Positions 12,910 to 60,315 of a DNA stretch of 64,000 nt are shown in pieces (position 1 is the first letter of the stretch; each line of letters starts with the position of its first letter). A program made the position numbers and the translations under genes. Source of the stretch: Candidatus Aminicenantes bacterium (lineage in GTDB: Bacteria; Acidobacteriota; Aminicenantia; Aminicenantales; Aminicenantaceae); NCBI GenBank assembly GCA_016783445.1, contig JADHWO010000002.1:25464-89463 (forward strand). Direction: 5' to 3'. A model generated the notes under the pieces. That model was not told the origin of the DNA. It worked only from the letters and a program-made list of their open reading frames with translations, and made no database searches.

Positions 12910-13218
12910 GGTTATTCACCTAAATTATAATCAGTTCATTTCTTCTTGCCGAACGCTTGCTGTATCCGGGTCGATTATTCCGGCTGCTTTCCGAACGGTC
13001 TCGTTTCCTGCGTTATTCGTTTTAATTCGCAGAAACACACTTGTAACGATTCATAAATATTAGACGAAAAAATAAACAATTTCTTCCAAAACTTTCAATA
13101 ATTTCTATATAATTTCTGCAATTCCTATATAACTAAAATTTCAATTTAACTATATATAATATTCTATTCTGCCTCCTGGCACAAGTTGGATTATTTTTGC
13201 GAGGAACATAGAAAATTA

Positions 13219-13388
13219 CCGCGTTGCGCTCGCAATGAGCCACGTAATCTCTTTTTACGTAGGGGCTTGATTCATCTGTAGAGGTTTGATTTATCTGTAG
13301 GGATTTGATTTATCAAACCCACAATTTTTAAATAGATAATTTTCAATCGAATAATCATTTAACGGATTTGAAAAATCAAGCCCCTACA
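13219..13388. repeat. Cluster of REP-like palindromes. One family-2 unit sits at 13219-13251. Three family-1 units and a partner half sit at 13258-13388.
   Basis: The sequence is gtaggggcttgattcatctgtagaggtttgatttatctgtagggatttgatttatcaaaccc ... aaaaatcaagcccctac. Confidence 0.6.
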
Positions 13389-13548
13389 GCTTTATATAAA
13401 TAATGAAGCCTGTCCTCATTATTGTAAAAAAAGTTTTTATTTTATTTGAAATAAAGTAATATTAGGCATAAAATTTATGGGCTATCAAATGTATTTTGAT
13501 AAAACGCTTCTACAGTTAACCTTGATTATTAATTCATATATTAAGATA

Positions 13549-13834
13549 TCGGCAGTTTTTATGAATAATTCAGGTAGACATGGGTTATTCACGAGTTGAG
13601 ATTACCGTAGATGCGAGGCGCAGGGTGTGAAGCTGTGGTTTTCCACCGCGAATGCCCTGCAACGAAGCAGGTTCGGTGAGATCGGCTCGCCTGAAAGGTA
13701 AAAAATGCCGACGTAAAATTAAAATGAGGCCATTGGAGAATGTTTGAATGTTAATATTCAGAAATAATCAACGTAACTGGCTAGTATTTTTGAAGATAAA
13801 AAATGTGTCGGCAGTTTTTATGAATAATTCAGGT
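13549..13834 (+). repeat. Copy A of a roughly 250-bp structured intergenic repeat (MITE or ncRNA-like). It is flanked by 28-bp direct repeats of GTCGGCAGTTTTTATGAATAATTCAGGT.
   Basis: It is about 85 percent identical to 47148-47425, and to the reverse complement of 36522-36758 over the conserved segments. It contains the inverted repeat AAAAAATGCCGAC...GTCGGCAGTTTTT. Confidence 0.7.
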
Positions 13835-13883
13835 TAAATGGAATAGTTATTTCCAAAAATTTACTTTAAAGGAGGGAGAAGGC

Positions 13884-17952: not shown

Positions 17953-18152
17953 CGTAGGGATTTGATTAAATTGCAGGGATTTGATTCATCATACCCGTTA
18001 ATTCTGAATTTGTAGGAGCTTGATTTATCAAGCCCACTTTATTGTTTTGCAGGGATTTGATTCATCAAACCCGTTGATTTTTAAAAAAGGGAATTGGCCT
18101 CAATTTCTTTCTTTTTCTGTCATTGCAAGGAACGAAGTGACGCGGCAATCTC
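17953..18152. repeat. Cluster of four family-1 REP-like palindromes plus one family-2 unit
   Basis: The family-1 units are gtagggatttgattaaattgcaggg, atttgattcatcataccc, gtaggagcttgatttatcaagccc and gcagggatttgattcatcaaaccc. The family-2 unit is tcattgcaaggaacgaagtgacgcggcaatctc at 18119-18152. Confidence 0.6.
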
Positions 18153-20494: not shown

Positions 20495-20507
20495 GATAGA
20501 TGGAATA

Positions 20508-20618
20508 GGGGTCGCGTCTCAACACTTGACATTACAGAAAGAAGTGAGACTGCCGCACTTTGTTCGCAATGACAATAATTAGTGAGATTGCCACGTCACT
20601 GCGTTCCTCGCAATGACA
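20508..20618. repeat. Repeat cluster with one copy of the 26-bp motif (inverted) and two tandem family-2 units
   Basis: The 26-bp motif is ggggtcgcgtctcaacacttgacattac. The family-2 units are gagactgccgcactttgttcgcaatgacaat and gagattgccacgtcactgcgttcctcgcaatgacaat. Confidence 0.6.
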
Positions 20619-36500: not shown

Positions 36501-36521
36501 ATATACACTTTAAACTAGCGT

Positions 36522-36758
36522 GCATTATTCATAAAAACTGCCGATGCCATCATTCATTCTTTATAATATCTATATCAATCATCGGCATTTTTTACTCTTC
36601 GAGCGAGCCGATATTGTGAGATTGCCGCGTCGCTTCGCTCCTCGCAACGACGTCTGCTTCGTTGCAAAGGATTTGCGGTGGAGAACCACAGCTTCATCCT
36701 TCACGCCTCGCATCTACGGCAACCTCGACTCGTGAATAATGCACGTACGCGTGAATTG
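36522..36758 (-). repeat. Copy B (inverted) of the roughly 250-bp structured repeat. Its internal hairpin plus T-run is placed as a terminator for the upstream gene.
   Basis: The reverse complement aligns to 13583-13834 and 47160-47425. aaaaactgccgatg...catcggcatttttt lies directly after the stop at 36500. Confidence 0.7.
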
Positions 36759-44577: not shown

Positions 44578-45855
44578 TTATAGATGCCATGGTGCACGCA
44601 TGGGTTGAGCGATTAAACGGTTTGCCTCCACATCATTAATGAACCGCTGTTTGTCCGGGTCAAAATGAAGAGGTCTTCCCAATCGCACAGCAATTTTGCT
44701 CAGATTGACGATTGTACAGGAACGATGTCCATTTTCTTCATTTAAGGCAAACTTTTTTCGGGTTCTAACAGCCTTGATAAAGTCGGTCACCTGAGGTTCT
44801 GGGTCAGGAAGAGTAGCCAGTTTTTCTTTTAAATTGGGAATATCGGATTCAAGGCCTTTGAATAACTTTCCATCGGGCCCTTCGATGAACGCTGCATCTT
44901 TATCCTTGTTTTCGCCGTCAAGGATTATTTCACAGCCATCAGCATATTTTAATTGAATCCGGCGCCAGCTTCCACAAGCGTCAGGATGCTGCTGGGGACA
45001 GTCAGCTTCAATTTCGACCGGACTGGTGTCATCTTTGTCAAGAATATATTGAACCGGGTCAAGGTAATGCATACCCATGTCTCCAAGTCCGCCGCCATCA
45101 TAATCCCAGTATCCACGGAATGTGCCGTGAACTCGATGCTTGTTATAAGGTTTATAGGGAGCAGGACCGAGCCAGAAATCATAATCCAGTTCTTTAGGAA
45201 CAGGTTCGGGTTTTAAATTTGTTTCTCCGCTCCAGTAAAATTTCCAGTCAAAACCGGTTATGCCGCTGACCGTAACTTTTAAAGGCCAGCCCAATATGCC
45301 GCTCTGGACCAGTTTTTTTATTGGCTTGACAGTAGTGTCAAAACCGTAGAACTGATCTCTAAATCTGAACCAGGTATTCAGCCTGAAAATTCTTCCATTC
45401 TTCTGCACAGCTTCCACAATTTTTTGTCCTTCGCCGATTGTTCTTGTCATAGGTTTTTCACACCAGATGTCCTTGCCTGCTTCTGCTGCAGCAACGGCGA
45501 TGAGTGCGTGCCAGTGTGGGGGGGTTGGGATATGGACAATGTCAATATCAGACCGCTCAAGGACTTCACGAAAATCCTTATAGCCTGCAACTCCGGGCCC
45601 GGCAATTTTTTGTGCCATGTTTAAATGTTTTTCATCAACATCACATACTGCCAGAAGTTTAGCCCCCGGATAATGAAGGTGCACCCGTCCCATACCGCCT
45701 ACGCCAATTACAGCTTTTGTAAGCTGGTCGCTGGGTGCTGTGTAGCCTGCGCCTCCCAGAACGTAACGTGGCACTATTGTGAGGGCAGCAGTGGCAGATA
45801 TTGTATGCTTAATAAAATCCCTTCGGGTTATTTGTTTTTTTCTTGTCATATCCAT
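44578..45855 (-). CDS. Tat-exported Gfo/Idh/MocA-family oxidoreductase
   Basis: The Tat motif is TRRDFIKHT. The Rossmann segment is KAVIGVGGMG. It is in an operon with the HEAT-DUF1080 gene. Confidence 0.85.
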   Translation of the reverse strand: MDMTRKKQITRRDFIKHTISATAALTIVPRYVLGGAGYTAPSDQLTKAVIGVGGMGRVHLHYPGAKLLAVCDVDEKHLNMAQKIAGPGVAGYKDFREVLERSDIDIVHIPTPPHWHALIAVAAAEAGKDIWCEKPMTRTIGEGQKIVEAVQKNGRIFRLNTWFRFRDQFYGFDTTVKPIKKLVQSGILGWPLKVTVSGITGFDWKFYWSGETNLKPEPVPKELDYDFWLGPAPYKPYNKHRVHGTFRGYWDYDGGGLGDMGMHYLDPVQYILDKDDTSPVEIEADCPQQHPDACGSWRRIQLKYADGCEIILDGENKDKDAAFIEGPDGKLFKGLESDIPNLKEKLATLPDPEPQVTDFIKAVRTRKKFALNEENGHRSCTIVNLSKIAVRLGRPLHFDPDKQRFINDVEANRLIAQPMRAPWHL

Positions 45856-45999
45856 CTCCTGTTTTTTGGAATGTTATGACCGGGTATTTACGGCAAACGC
45901 GGCTCGTTAATAATCCAGGCTATTTTAAGCCAGCATATTATACAGCATTACTATAAGAATTTCTTTTTTTGCATGCAAGAGCTTTCCTCCTTTTTGCTG

Positions 46000-46028
46000 T
46001 AATGTCAAATGTTGAGACGCGACCCCTT
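46000..46028 (+). promoter_or_regulatory. Copy of the 26-bp motif GTAATGTCAAATGTTGAGACGCGACCCC, in the divergent promoter region
   Basis: It lies between the Gfo gene (-, start 45855) and the GHMP kinase gene (+, start 46149). Confidence 0.4.
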
Positions 46029-46148
46029 TTTAACTTTTGCAGCTTTATTTTTTCGATTTTAATAATCCTGAAGACATAATTGATTGGCATACTGTTGTTG
46101 AATATGTAAAATAAGGGACCTTGAGGAATGTCCCTATAGAACAGGAAA

Positions 46149-47144
46149 ATGATTATAAATAATCGTGCCTATGCCAGGGCTGGCGTGTTTGGTAATCCTT
46201 CCGATGGATATTTCGGCAAGGTTATAGCGATATCGGTTAAAAATTTTTATGCAGAGGTCACACTCCGGGAATCCCGGGATCTCCGGATTGAGGAGAAAAA
46301 GCAGGACCTGAACGTTTACAGGAATATTCATGACCTTGTTAATAAGATCAACCTCTATGGATACTATGGTGGAGTTCGCCTGATCAGGGCAACGATTAAG
46401 AAGTTCCATGACTACTGCATGAGCCAGGATATCAGGCTGGAAGATAAAAACTTCACAATCCAGTATGATTCCAATATACCCCGCCAGCTTGGCTTAGGAG
46501 GCTCCAGTGCGATCATTACTGCAGCAATTCGCTCCTTGATGGAATATTATGAGGTAAAAATTCCCATAAAGATGCTTCCCTCAATAGTGCTGGATGTTGA
46601 GCTTAAGGAGCTGGGAATCAATGCAGGTTTTATGGACAGAGTTATCCAGGTTTATGAGGGTTGTATCTATATGGATTTAGATTCTGAGATAATAAGGGAG
46701 AAAGGACACGGAATTTATGAACGCCTGGATACAAAACTCATCCCTGAGCTCTATCTTGCCTACAAACCAGAACTGGGAAAAGTATCAGGGCATGTTTTAG
46801 ACGATATTCGAGCGGGATATGAAAAAGGGGATAGGTTGGTCATCAACACGTTAAAACGGATTGCAGAGATCGCAGAGATCGGGAAAAAAGCCCTGCTTCA
46901 TGGGAATATTGACGAGCTGCATGATTTGATGAACGAAAATTTTGACCTGCGAAGCAAGATCATGAAAATCAACGACAGCAATTTAGAGATGATACAGACA
47001 GCACGCCGGTGCGGGGCTTCGGCCAAATTTGCAGGCTCTGGCGGTTCTATCATCGGTATGTATAAAGATGATGATATGTTTTCCCGCTTAGCAAGTGAAC
47101 TGGAGAAGATCCAGGCCAAAGTTTTTAAACCCGTCATCGATTAG
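46149..47144 (+). CDS. GHMP-family kinase (sugar or small-molecule kinase)
   Basis: The ATP-binding motif is PRQLGLGGSSAIITAAI. Confidence 0.8.
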   Translation: MIINNRAYARAGVFGNPSDGYFGKVIAISVKNFYAEVTLRESRDLRIEEKKQDLNVYRNIHDLVNKINLYGYYGGVRLIRATIKKFHDYCMSQDIRLEDKNFTIQYDSNIPRQLGLGGSSAIITAAIRSLMEYYEVKIPIKMLPSIVLDVELKELGINAGFMDRVIQVYEGCIYMDLDSEIIREKGHGIYERLDTKLIPELYLAYKPELGKVSGHVLDDIRAGYEKGDRLVINTLKRIAEIAEIGKKALLHGNIDELHDLMNENFDLRSKIMKINDSNLEMIQTARRCGASAKFAGSGGSIIGMYKDDDMFSRLASELEKIQAKVFKPVID

Positions 47145-47147
47145 GCT

Positions 47148-47425
47148 GGATTATTCACGAGTAGACGTGAATTATTCACGAGTCGAGATTGCCGCAGATG
47201 CGAGGCGCAGGGTATGAAGCTGTGGTTCTCCACTGCGAATGCGCTGCAACGAAACAGATGCGGTAATACCGGCTCGCCAGGAGGGTAAAAAATGCCGAAA
47301 ATAAAATTAATAATAAGCCCTTGGGAGAATATTTGAATGTTAATTTTGAGAGATAATCAATGTAACAGGTTAATATTTTTAAAAATAAAAAATAGTTTCG
47401 GCAGTTTTTATGAATTGTTCACGAG
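47148..47425 (+). repeat. Copy C of the roughly 250-bp structured repeat. It fills the whole GHMP-dctP intergenic region.
   Basis: It aligns to 13583-13834. It ends ...tcggcagtttttatgaattgttcacgag, immediately before ATG 47426. Confidence 0.7.
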
Positions 47426-48424
47426 ATGAGGAATTTTAAAAGAAGGGTAAAGCTATTCACACTTTTTGTGCTTGCTTCCTACTTCTTTCTCAGTACAGGC
47501 TGTGGAGCCGATAAAAAGATTAAAATCATTAAGCTGGCACACGGCCTGAATCCTAAACATCCGGTTCACATGGCCATGAAATTTATGGCAGAGCGTGTAT
47601 TGGAGAAATCCGGCGGAAGACTGAGAATTGATATTTATCCAAGCGAACAACTGGGTTCTGAGCGAGAATGCCTGGAACTTCTACAAATAGGTAGTCTGGG
47701 CATGACAAAAGTCTCTTGCAGTGTGCTGGAAGGCTTTGTGCCTGCTATGAGTATTCTGAGCCTACCATATATTTTTTTGAATGAAGAACACCGTTTTAAA
47801 GTATTGGAAGGAGAGATCGGACGGAAACTGCTTTTGGAAGGCGAGAAATACTGGTTGAGAGGACTTTGTTATTATGATGCGGGAAGCAGGAGCTTCTACA
47901 CAAAAAATAAGCCCATATTATCCCCTTCAGATCTGGACGGAATGAAAGTCCGGACCCAGGAGAGTTCCACCTCAATGAGAATGGTCCAGGTCCTGGGGGG
48001 TTCACCCACACCGATTGCATGGGGAGAGCTTTATTCAGCCCTTCAGCAGGGAGTTGTGGATGGAGCGGAAAATAATCCACCGAGTTTTTTTCTTTCAAGA
48101 CATTTTGAAGTCTGCAAATTTTACTCTCTTGATGAGCACACGGGTGTACCGGATGTCCTTTTAATCAGCACAAAAATCTGGCACGAGCTTACGCCCGAGT
48201 TACAAGAGATACTTCAGGAAGCAGCCTATGAATCAGAACAGCACCAGAAGATATTATGGAAAAAAGCCACTCAAGACGCATTAGAGCAGGTTCAAAAGGC
48301 CGGGGTAAAAATATATTATCCGGATAAAGACCTTTTTGCTGAAAAAGTAAAATCCATATATGAAGCGTACAAAGCAAAACCGGAAATATATCAGCTTATT
48401 AAGCAAATTAAGGCGGTTCAGTGA
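47426..48424 (+). CDS. dctP: TRAP transporter substrate-binding protein (DctP family)
   Basis: There is a lipoprotein-like signal, and KLAHGLNPKHPVHMAMKFMAERV is typical of DctP. There is no SD, because the repeat abuts the start codon. Confidence 0.85.
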   Translation: MRNFKRRVKLFTLFVLASYFFLSTGCGADKKIKIIKLAHGLNPKHPVHMAMKFMAERVLEKSGGRLRIDIYPSEQLGSERECLELLQIGSLGMTKVSCSVLEGFVPAMSILSLPYIFLNEEHRFKVLEGEIGRKLLLEGEKYWLRGLCYYDAGSRSFYTKNKPILSPSDLDGMKVRTQESSTSMRMVQVLGGSPTPIAWGELYSALQQGVVDGAENNPPSFFLSRHFEVCKFYSLDEHTGVPDVLLISTKIWHELTPELQEILQEAAYESEQHQKILWKKATQDALEQVQKAGVKIYYPDKDLFAEKVKSIYEAYKAKPEIYQLIKQIKAVQ

Positions 48425-57445: not shown

Positions 57446-57650
57446 GAGAGTAAAGCGGTGCGGCAATCTTATAGTTTTCTGTAGGAGCTTGATTCATCAA
57501 ACCCATCTTTGTATTGGGGATTTGGTTTAAATGTAGGTAACATGATGATGTGATGCACCTCCACTGGGATTTGATTCATCAAACCCACAATAGGAAAAGG
57601 ATAGAATAAAATGTTTTTGCCAGGAGCATAACGACGCGGCAATCTCACCT
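57446..57650. repeat. REP cluster with two family-2 units flanking two family-1 palindromes
   Basis: The units are gcggtgcggcaatctta, gtaggagcttgattcatcaaaccc, gggatttgattcatcaaacccac and acgacgcggcaatctcac. Confidence 0.55.
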
Positions 57651-60064: not shown

Positions 60065-60127
60065 CATCTAAAACTTCTTTTTTCCTTTTGACTTAAATAT
60101 TATCCTGCAATATAAAATAAAGATACT

Positions 60128-60273
60128 GAGGGCTTGATAAATCAAGCCTCTACATGAAAGAATAATATGAGATTGCTGTGTTTCGCTTGTAAAAACAAAA
60201 CAAATTGTGAGATTGCCACGCTTCGCTCGCAACAGGCTATGTAATCTCATTGCGAGCGAAGCGTGGCAATCTT
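60128..60273. repeat. One family-1 palindrome plus a perfect 24-bp inverted repeat of family 2 that forms a long hairpin
   Basis: The palindrome is gagggcttgataaatcaagcctctac. The inverted repeat is gagattgccacgcttcgctcgcaa (60209-60232) and ttgcgagcgaagcgtggcaatctt (60250-60273). Confidence 0.6.
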
Positions 60274-60315
60274 CTTCGCTCTTCGTTATGACATTAAATT
60301 TTTAAGGAGGTAAAG

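Follow-up and report, generated by a model that had tools for sequence, protein, structure and literature searches.

A probable miniature inverted-repeat transposable element with a covarying module in one arm, placed at gene boundaries in Candidatus Aminicenantes

The stretch of 64,000 nucleotides analysed here (the window) belongs to a Candidatus Aminicenantes bacterium (assembly GCA_016783445.1, contig JADHWO010000002.1, positions 25,464 to 89,463 of the forward strand). It contains a repeat of about 255 bp in three homologous copies, A, B and C, which a covariance model of the element scores at 143.8, 107.7 and 140 bits, respectively; no further full copy is detected by the model anywhere in the window. 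Copy A precedes an M14 peptidase gene, copy B follows a TIM-barrel gene, and copy C lies between a GHMP-kinase gene and dctP. The repeat is very probably a non-autonomous DNA transposon, that is, a miniature inverted-repeat transposable element (MITE), which would be mobilised in trans and whose long form carries a module that folds as a single strand. The copies in the window and the smaller pieces of the same element are as follows.

13516-13519 and 13834-13837: TTAA duplication, enclosing the 55-bp element and copy A together
13520-13574, plus strand: 55-bp internally deleted element (stub of the left inverted repeat, IRL, and complete right end), head-to-tail 5' of copy A
13575-13578: TAGA spacer between the 55-bp stub and copy A
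13579-13833, plus strand: copy A, 255-bp long form
36519-36745, minus strand: copy B, long form with an interior about 60 nt shorter
45899-45919, minus strand: fourth remnant, CCTGGATTATTAACGAGCCGC, consisting of the left end and the start of stem P1
47145-47161, plus strand: X1, 17-nt left-terminal-repeat stub GCTGGATTATTCACGAG, directly 3' of the kinase stop codon TAG
47162-47165: spacer TAGA between stub X1 and copy C
47166-47423, plus strand: copy C, 258-bp long form

The gap between the kinase stop codon (TAG, 47142-47144) and the dctP ATG (47426) is 281 nt long, and every part of it is derived from the element: the stub at 47145-47161, TAGA, the 258-bp copy C and a final AG. The right end of copy C lies 2 nt from the ATG. 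Stub X1 matches the family left-end consensus CCTGGATTATTCACGAG at 16 of 17 positions and is also present in the core-less allele described below. At the peptidase locus, the ATG of the M14 gene (13884) is 50 nt past the end of copy A (13833), with a GGAGGG Shine-Dalgarno (SD) sequence in between. Copy B is inverted; the end of its right inverted repeat (IRR), at 36519, is 18 nt past the TIM-barrel stop codon (36500), and the hairpin AAAAACTGCCGATG...CATCGGCATTTTTT is located there. These three placements had been described in a first-pass annotation of the window and are confirmed.

An alignment of 52 distinct full copies (A2) gives a typical long-form length of 252-258 bp, with a range of 250-273 bp. 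All copies have outer inverted repeats of 13 nt (CCTGGATTATTCA / TGAATAATTCAGG), which are 95% paired, and the TTTT of the T-run is identical in all 52 aligned copies. The parts of the long form are set out below for copy C.

47166-47178, plus strand: outer left inverted repeat (IRL) CGTGAATTATTCA, pairing with 47411-47423 in A2
47179-47285, plus strand: structured module, from RNAalifold and pair counts
47179-47184 and 47271-47276: stem P1
47189-47195 and 47260-47266: stem P2
47208-47214 and 47240-47246: stem P3
47219-47225 and 47230-47236: stem P4
47277-47285, plus strand: small hairpin CCAGGAGGG, 3' of P1
47286-47298, plus strand: inner left inverted repeat TAAAAAATGCCGA, the 5' strand of stem P5, pairing with 47398-47410
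47299-47397, plus strand: AT-rich variable interior, which is the P5 loop (poorly conserved columns 186-338 of A2)
47398-47423, plus strand: right 26-nt terminal repeat, with inner part TCGGCAGTTTTTA and outer part (IRR) TGAATTGTTCACG

The repeat has the properties by which MITEs are recognised: its size is within about 50-600 bp, it has no coding capacity, it has a terminal inverted repeat (TIR) and a target duplication, and its copies are dispersed and polymorphic. The 4-bp target duplication is perfect in 16 of 45 copies (CTAA, TTAA, CTAG, GTAA, TACA and TTAG), and a YTAR consensus is seen on both flanks of the copies. In the window, the unit formed by the 55-bp stub and copy A is flanked by TTAA/TTAA, copy C by AGA/AGA at best, and copy B by TA only. 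No reading frame is conserved across the 52 aligned copies. A small protein gene (SD-like GGG(G), TAAAAA and ATG, followed by a 40-aa frame ending in the right repeat) was considered and rejected: the conserved ATG opens a frame of 39-40 codons in only 7 of the 52 copies, and in the window copies the frame stops after 3-14 codons. Rfam gives no matches in the window at the gathering threshold, and at relaxed E-values (10 for copy C; 5 for a canonical copy) only chance-level matches (E ≥ 1) are returned.

A genome scan with the conserved word TGAAGCTGTGGTTNTCCAC, restricted to one genome per species, yields more than 100 loci, of which about 73 are the true element, among the matches listed; among these matches, single metagenome-assembled genomes (MAGs) have at least 7-8 loci. 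By record title the carriers are mostly Candidatus Aminicenantes or Acidobacteriota MAGs, together with one Atribacteria and one Desulfobacterales; further carriers are MAGs titled 'uncultured Eubacteriales', a label that is possibly unreliable. A second scan, of metagenome contigs with a right-end 24-mer as the word, yields more than 120 loci. Carriage by phage was considered and dismissed, the one word match on a viral contig not being a real copy. In the literature, nothing was found linking Aminicenantes with MITEs, and nothing specific on structured RNA in MITEs. With neither an Rfam match nor a literature record, the family appears to be undescribed so far.

The metagenome scan also contains short forms of 146-149 bp, and one of 84 bp, with the layout CCTGRATTATTCAT-AAAAAMTGCCGAT ... 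ATCGGCAGTTTTT-ATGAATAATTCAGG. In these the inner left repeat adjoins the outer repeat directly, and the TIR is intact with 27 bp, CCTGAATTATTCAT-AAAAACTGCCGA (27-mer CCTGAATTATTCATAAAAACTGCCGA). They carry duplications of their own (CTAA/CTAA in L210, ATAG/ATAG in L178). The long form corresponds to the short form plus about 110 nt, which separate the outer half of the left repeat from its inner half. The core is present upstream in only 24 of the 82 right-end matches; among the remainder are solo right ends, short forms and copies that are truncated or divergent. Truncation at the 5' side, as a sign of retrotransposition, was considered and set aside; the right-end-only matches are mostly short forms, split alignments or copies with a divergent interior. 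The A-run, GCCGA stem and T-run that had been noted as a hairpin at the copies are the inner half of the 27-bp TIR. The presence and conservation of this hairpin need no regulatory cause, because it is the terminal inverted repeat.

The additional 110 nt or so of the long form are predicted by RNAalifold on A2 to form an irregular rod composed of P1 (6 bp), P2 (7 bp, with a 3-bp P2b), P3 (7 bp) and P4, the last being an apical GC-GUGG/CCAC-GC stem. The internal loops GAGG, AGAUGCGAGGCAU / AACGAAGCAGAU and UGAA/GAA are conserved, as is the small hairpin. Compensatory double changes occur at 27 of the 47 predicted pairs. The cells are paired at 95.8%, against 37-50% when the partners are slid by 1-3 columns, and none of 500 shuffles matches the observed pairing values by any measure. 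The two strands are not equivalent: P2 is 94% paired on the strand read from IRL to IRR and 66% on the complement, and the corresponding values for P1 are 98% and 82%. Wobble pairs account for 105 of 349 cells in P2 and 52 of 309 in P1, and G-U (G-T) pairs exist on the IRL-to-IRR strand only. The module would act as a folded single strand, because its pairing is better on one strand and includes many G-U (G-T) pairs; this single strand is most likely RNA. The position of the module is constant, inside the left inverted repeat, and no module-only copy outside the MITE was found in the model and metagenome searches. An independent mobile hairpin was considered as the origin of the module and discarded; its lone candidate, L184, is a long form full of nested small repeats.

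The first-pass annotation had proposed that the repeat is a gene-boundary module, and as regards placement this holds across the family. With gene boundaries taken from simple open reading frame (ORF) calls around the 52 long-form copies, the IRR end is at a median distance of 8.5 nt from the nearest gene boundary, compared with 77 nt for the IRL end (Mann-Whitney, p=2e-6); overall, the medians obtained for the module-free end are 8.5-19 nt. The metagenome set, obtained with a different word, shows 47 of 67 IRR ends within 60 nt of a gene boundary, 13 of them coinciding with a stop codon. Among 81 distinct long-form copies, considering frames of at least 100 codons, a stop codon abuts the IRR end 16 times and the IRL end once (binomial test, p=2.7e-4), a count that includes a few orthologous loci, so that independent events are somewhat fewer. 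In convergent genes the stop codon is very often the TAA or TAG inside the target duplication. In co-oriented downstream genes, by inspection, the element ends 14-31 nt before the ATG, just upstream of the native SD sequence. All three window copies have the right end at the gene.

Relative to the upstream gene, 21 copies are on the same strand and 22 on the opposite strand; of the downstream genes, 29 point the same way as the element and 21 are convergent with it. The target with its flanks looks palindromic (AA-YTAR-TT), and the flanks contain approximately 70% A+T on the left and 60% on the right. Two explanations were examined and rejected. A global orientation bias linked to replication or transcription does not agree with the balanced orientation relative to neighbouring genes. 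A riboswitch or 5' leader does not agree with the 29 co-oriented and 21 convergent downstream genes, nor with the copies, at least 16, that are abutted by the stop codon of a convergent gene, nor with the unrelated nature of the neighbours. Neither the target nor a global strand bias explains the rule, because the target looks palindromic and the neighbour orientation is balanced. Stop codons themselves are targets, since YTAR contains TAA or TAG. Beyond such YTAR targeting, the orientation rule puts the module-free right end against the gene. Selection against a module adjoining a coding end, a spacer required upstream on the module side, or an asymmetric transposition complex preferring the AT-richer spacer on the module side may each be its cause.

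At several loci one ordinary gene stands between two gene-facing element ends (L169:1264-2406, L228:5603-8069, L212:2607-5595 and L183:4433-7684). The bracketed genes (SDR-type dehydrogenase, malic-enzyme-like and others) were named from reading the sequences and not from a family search. The resemblance of these arrangements to composite transposons more likely reflects the right-end-at-gene-boundary rule acting on both sides.

A comparison with relatives lacking the insertion, as had been suggested in the first-pass annotation, yields a core-less allele at C and an allele without A at the peptidase locus. The 243-bp core of copy C is absent from L001-L003, L115 and L119. In MAG GCA_014382045.1 and in several assemblies of read sets, only 38 bp separate the genes for the same two proteins, kinase and DctP, with the sequence TAA-CCTGGATTATTCAAGAG-TAGA-CGTGGATTATTCCCGAG-ATG; copy C thus parts the GHMP kinase from dctPQM, which in these relatives is 38 bp downstream. 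Across 6.2 kb of flank the alleles differ at 1 position outside the gap zone (99.9% identity), and the zone itself has five substitutions within 35 bp of X1/X2 in addition to the 243-bp indel. The C-less allele, which retains two repeat stubs, cannot be taken for a naive empty site. In the window the kinase gene ends with TAG (47142-47145), and L001:2960-2963 has TAA; this difference is one of the five clustered substitutions. The clustering suggests gene conversion from another copy. Gaps of 100 N stand at or beside the C site (window 47183-47425) in three independent European Nucleotide Archive scaffolds, exactly at the junction in L116:2535-2634 and 22 nt into dctP in L117 and L118; they probably fit mixed alleles in the samples.

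Copy A is absent from L185, a Joint Genome Institute contig with 99.5% identity in the flank, where only the 55-bp stub is found, flanked by TTAA/TTAA. The missing unit is 259 bp, and the breakpoints lie inside a 26-nt direct repeat. The 76 nt upstream of the M14 start (right end and flank) do not differ between the two alleles. Copies A and B occur in every other assembly found, and MAG contigs end inside both of these copies.

Head-to-tail junctions, in which a right end is followed after 2-5 nt by a left end, occur at 22 of 217 right ends (10%). At A the junction is TTCAGG-TAGA-CATGGG, and at B and C it is degenerate. Such junctions resemble the dimer or circle junctions of insertion sequences (IS). 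Together with the direct repeats of 13-26 nt between ends, they would make the copies recombinogenic, and recombination between ends probably gave the shorter alleles at A and C. The loci are unstable because the head-to-tail junctions and the near-palindromic repeat core supply direct repeats. Solo left-end stubs of 13-21 nt are seen 9-51 nt upstream of gene starts at L049:2384, L063, L073 and the window position 45899-45919 on the minus strand, and they may be footprints of lost copies. The window remnant sits 43 nt upstream of the start (45855) of a minus-strand oxidoreductase ORF (44578-45855), and an ORF search from the remnant picks an alternative start 51 nt downstream.

The comparison of alleles also bears on the start of dctP. 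The first-pass annotation had stated that dctP lacks an SD sequence as a consequence of copy C. The first part stands, as no SD-like motif is found in the 20 nt upstream of dctP. The second does not: dctP is without SD in the alleles with and without copy C, with CGAG before the ATG both times. The element is not the cause of the missing SD, and the lack predates the element core. The assigned start appears credible from its context, with an in-frame TGA 15 nt upstream of the ATG and an N-terminus that is a typical lipoprotein signal peptide. An absent SD is not exceptional, because about 21 of the 36 window genes have an SD-like motif. The presence or absence of the core leaves the proximal start signals unchanged, because the same or nearly the same sequence adjoins the M14 and dctP starts in either allele.

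The transposase that moves the element in trans would be a DDE transposase of the IS5 type. It is proposed because YTAR is the target of IS5 (5'-YTAR-3'; PMC5009759). Partner elements were sought 3' of left-end-plus-core copies without a right end, beside solo repeats, and in the intervals of 0.5-4 kb that separate paired repeats; these places held ordinary genes only (SDR dehydrogenase, malic enzyme and others). At L083:1270-2363, an insertion of about 1 kb stands at the module apex of a long-form copy and encodes a 254-aa ORF with DUF6577 (E=2e-37), which is not a transposase.

Several points weigh against the reading as a trans-mobilised MITE with a folded module. About 1.5 Mb of fetched loci contained no autonomous partner, meaning an element that combines these inverted repeats with a transposase gene, and mobilisation of the IS5 type is what we infer from the duplication as its single basis. 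The covariation in P5 may be a parallel change of both inverted repeats in subfamilies and not selection for a hairpin. That P4 does not vary in A2 is in part due to the search word, which lies in this stem; in copies found by the model P4 does covary, from GUGG/CCAC to GUAG/CUAC and GUAU/AUAC. Sequence alone fits RNA and single-stranded DNA alike. At A, the TTAA duplication encloses both the stub and copy A, which resembles recombination and not a fresh transposition, and the C-less allele is not a simple excision, a deletion or a one-step derivative of the window allele.

Three other explanations may be weighed against the same data. A transcription-control cassette, as envisaged in the first-pass annotation, would have P5 terminating transcription both ways and an outward promoter at the right end, thereby rewiring the peptidase, glycoside and TRAP-transporter loci. 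MITE effects of this type are known, with Correia promoters and the terminator-like SPRITE repeat as precedents (PMC10969869), and a regulatory role of the element on its neighbours is plausible; the cassette itself is nevertheless unlikely. The P5 stem, GCCGA(C/U)/(G/A)UCGGC, is A/U-extended and followed by T5-T6 on both strands, as in the stem and U-run of a terminator; every copy tested has it in its minimum-energy fold, and the T-run is invariant. Its loop, however, is longer than the roughly 3-10 nt of a terminator, with 33 nt in copy B and about 100 nt in copies A and C and in canonical ones; a scan for the intrinsic-terminator consensus gives 0 matches at A, B and C, the fold z-scores of the P5 region against shuffles are unremarkable (-0.9 to -3.4), and the hairpin is already accounted for as the inverted repeat. 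The claim of a bidirectional terminator is therefore not borne out for these hairpins. As for the promoter, each end reads outward TGAATAAT-YCAGG with a -10-like AATAAT 7 nt from the terminus, and the right ends lie 14-31 nt before start codons, just before the SD, in most co-oriented cases and exactly on the stop codon of convergent genes. The consensus scan nevertheless finds no sigma-70-like outward promoter at the right ends that belong to copies A, B and C themselves, and the -35 is not conserved. The one match, at 13541-13569 (TTAAGA-17-AATAAT), is in the stub before A, takes its -35 from stub-specific sequence, and would start transcription just before the left end of copy A. A promoter at the right end would moreover fire antisense into at least 16 convergent genes with an abutting stop codon, and the alleles with and without the core of A or C keep the same proximal upstream sequence. 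By-products for neighbouring genes, as known from other MITEs, may include a weak bidirectional termination where the A5-stem-T5 parts pair and the outward -10-like AATAAT.

The two remaining explanations concern the module. The long form might be a mobile gene for a structured RNA of about 250 nt, or a mobile 5' leader, in which P1-P4 is functional, TIR pairing ends the transcript, and the promoter lies in the junction or the spacer. This would explain the spacer of 50-250 nt kept on the module side, and it agrees with the strong compensatory evolution and conserved internal loops typical of functional RNAs, with the restriction of G-U pairs to the IRL-to-IRR strand, with the AT-rich spacer (median, 77 nt) at the left end, with the 10% of right ends, window copies included, that have a left end within 2-5 nt, and with the predicted promoter at 13541-13569. 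We regard it as improbable, because only 13 nt of the element precede P1 and contain no promoter, the element lies at random with respect to the strand of the upstream gene (21 same, 22 opposite), at least 17 copies face a convergent gene and do not form a consistent 5' leader, an Rfam match is absent, and module-less short forms spread as well. Alternatively, P1-P4 might act at the DNA level, as a REPIN-like single strand or cruciform used in transposition or bound by a host factor, with no RNA function. Compensatory change in hairpins is also a feature of REPINs, the position of the module within the left inverted repeat never varies, and the first bases of the small hairpin repeat GAGATTGCCGCGTCGC... 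recur in P1/P2, where this repeat is found nested time and again. Against this, the wobbles of P2 and P1 (105/349 and 52/309) are far weaker pairs in DNA and are absent on the complement, which would make a cruciform asymmetric; short forms transpose without the module, and no Y1/RAYT-type gene is seen near the copies. This explanation is likewise doubtful. A more elaborate proposal, in which the long form is a mobile, orientation-constrained RNA unit with a junction or spacer promoter, a selected P1-P4 and the 27-bp TIRs as terminator and insulator, is to be regarded as decidedly unlikely; if true, it would explain why start and stop codons have the module-free end beside them, in two or more phyla according to MAG labels. 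The MITE carrying a folded module remains the preferred reading.

As a MITE, the element may be compared with known repeats of bacteria. In kind it belongs with Correia, ERIC, RUP, BOX, SPRITE and IS5-derived MITEs; for such elements promoters, RNase processing, orientation-dependent effects on mRNA and terminator-like hairpins are described (PMC10969869). Correia elements (CREE/NEMIS, Neisseria) are likewise small (about 100-200 bp), non-autonomous and bounded by TIRs, with many copies mostly beside genes; their transcribed copies fold through the inverted repeats, and both a supply of promoters and processing as RNA are proposed and partly shown (PMC10969869). They differ in their TA duplication, documented sigma-70 promoters and IHF site, whereas the present element has YTAR, no promoter consensus at the IRR of A, B and C, and an extra covarying module of about 110 nt, and is found in another phylum. 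ERIC/IRU (enterobacteria, Yersinia) is an intergenic MITE that is transcribed together with neighbouring genes, its transcript folding into a hairpin. What it does to the upstream mRNA varies with the way it faces; in one orientation the 3' inverted repeat exposes an RNase E site (PMC10969869). As a precedent for an orientation rule at the 3' ends of genes, it comes closest. It is, however, a single imperfect palindrome with no sequence similarity to the present element. The latter is asymmetric, since only one of its arms carries the module, and its orientation bias is a statistical observation. SPRITE has a hairpin and T-run resembling a terminator, and its elements cluster and insert into one another (PMC10969869), as do the nested small hairpin repeats and head-to-tail copies here; the SPRITE stem-loop is compact and terminator-like, whereas here the inverted repeat itself forms the stem, around a loop of 33-100 nt.

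IS5-family insertion sequences and their MITE derivatives share the 4-bp 5'-YTAR-3' duplication (PMC5009759) and the preference for non-coding DNA. The repeats CCTGAATTATTCAT... are not matched to any member and no DDE transposase was found, so that the duplication alone makes the link.

REPINs are hairpins of about 100 nt in extragenic space, with stems kept by compensatory changes. Unlike the present element they lack classical inverted repeats and a target duplication, and the P1-P4 module is not seen outside the MITE. This family, a covarying module lodged in one inverted repeat, and the 16:1 orientation rule at stop codons were not found described.

The two notable features of the element are this module of about 110 nt in one inverted repeat, whose compensatory evolution is unusually clean, and the 16:1 rule. 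The element is abundant in uncultured Aminicenantes from sediments and breaks short-read assemblies. If the rule reflects termination, insulation or an RNA function, such elements would shape operon structure in a phylum without genetics. Within the window the initial observations are largely accounted for. The repeat is in all probability a transposon whose inverted repeats form the hairpin, and it is not responsible for the missing SD of dctP.

Other repeats are also present in the window. The small hairpin repeat GAGATTGCCGCGTCGC...GCGACGCGGCAATCTC, of about 35-70 nt, occurs at 13200-13239, 18118-18152, 36616-36653, 57604-57648 and 60246-60285. It is separate from the element, and the unit at 36616-36653 is nested in the 3' strand of P2 of copy B. 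It recurs inside the P2 stem of the long forms in L184 (10680-10900), L127 and L175, and its first bases resemble CGAGATTGCCG of the MITE, a likeness that points to common ancestry or to a favoured site of insertion. A third repeat family, with the palindromic core GTAGGGATTTGATT(T/C)ATCAAACCC, is found at 13259-13333, 17954-18085, 57462-57599 and 60123-60154; it forms intergenic clusters of 2-4 units, often beside the other two repeat families. A 41-nt repeat, AATAGGGGTCGCGTCTCAACACTTGACATTACAGAAAGAAG, occurs at 20504-20544 and, inverted with 90% identity, at 45990-46030, and a similar sequence is present in L177. One copy, containing TTGACA, is in the spacer that precedes the GHMP kinase gene.

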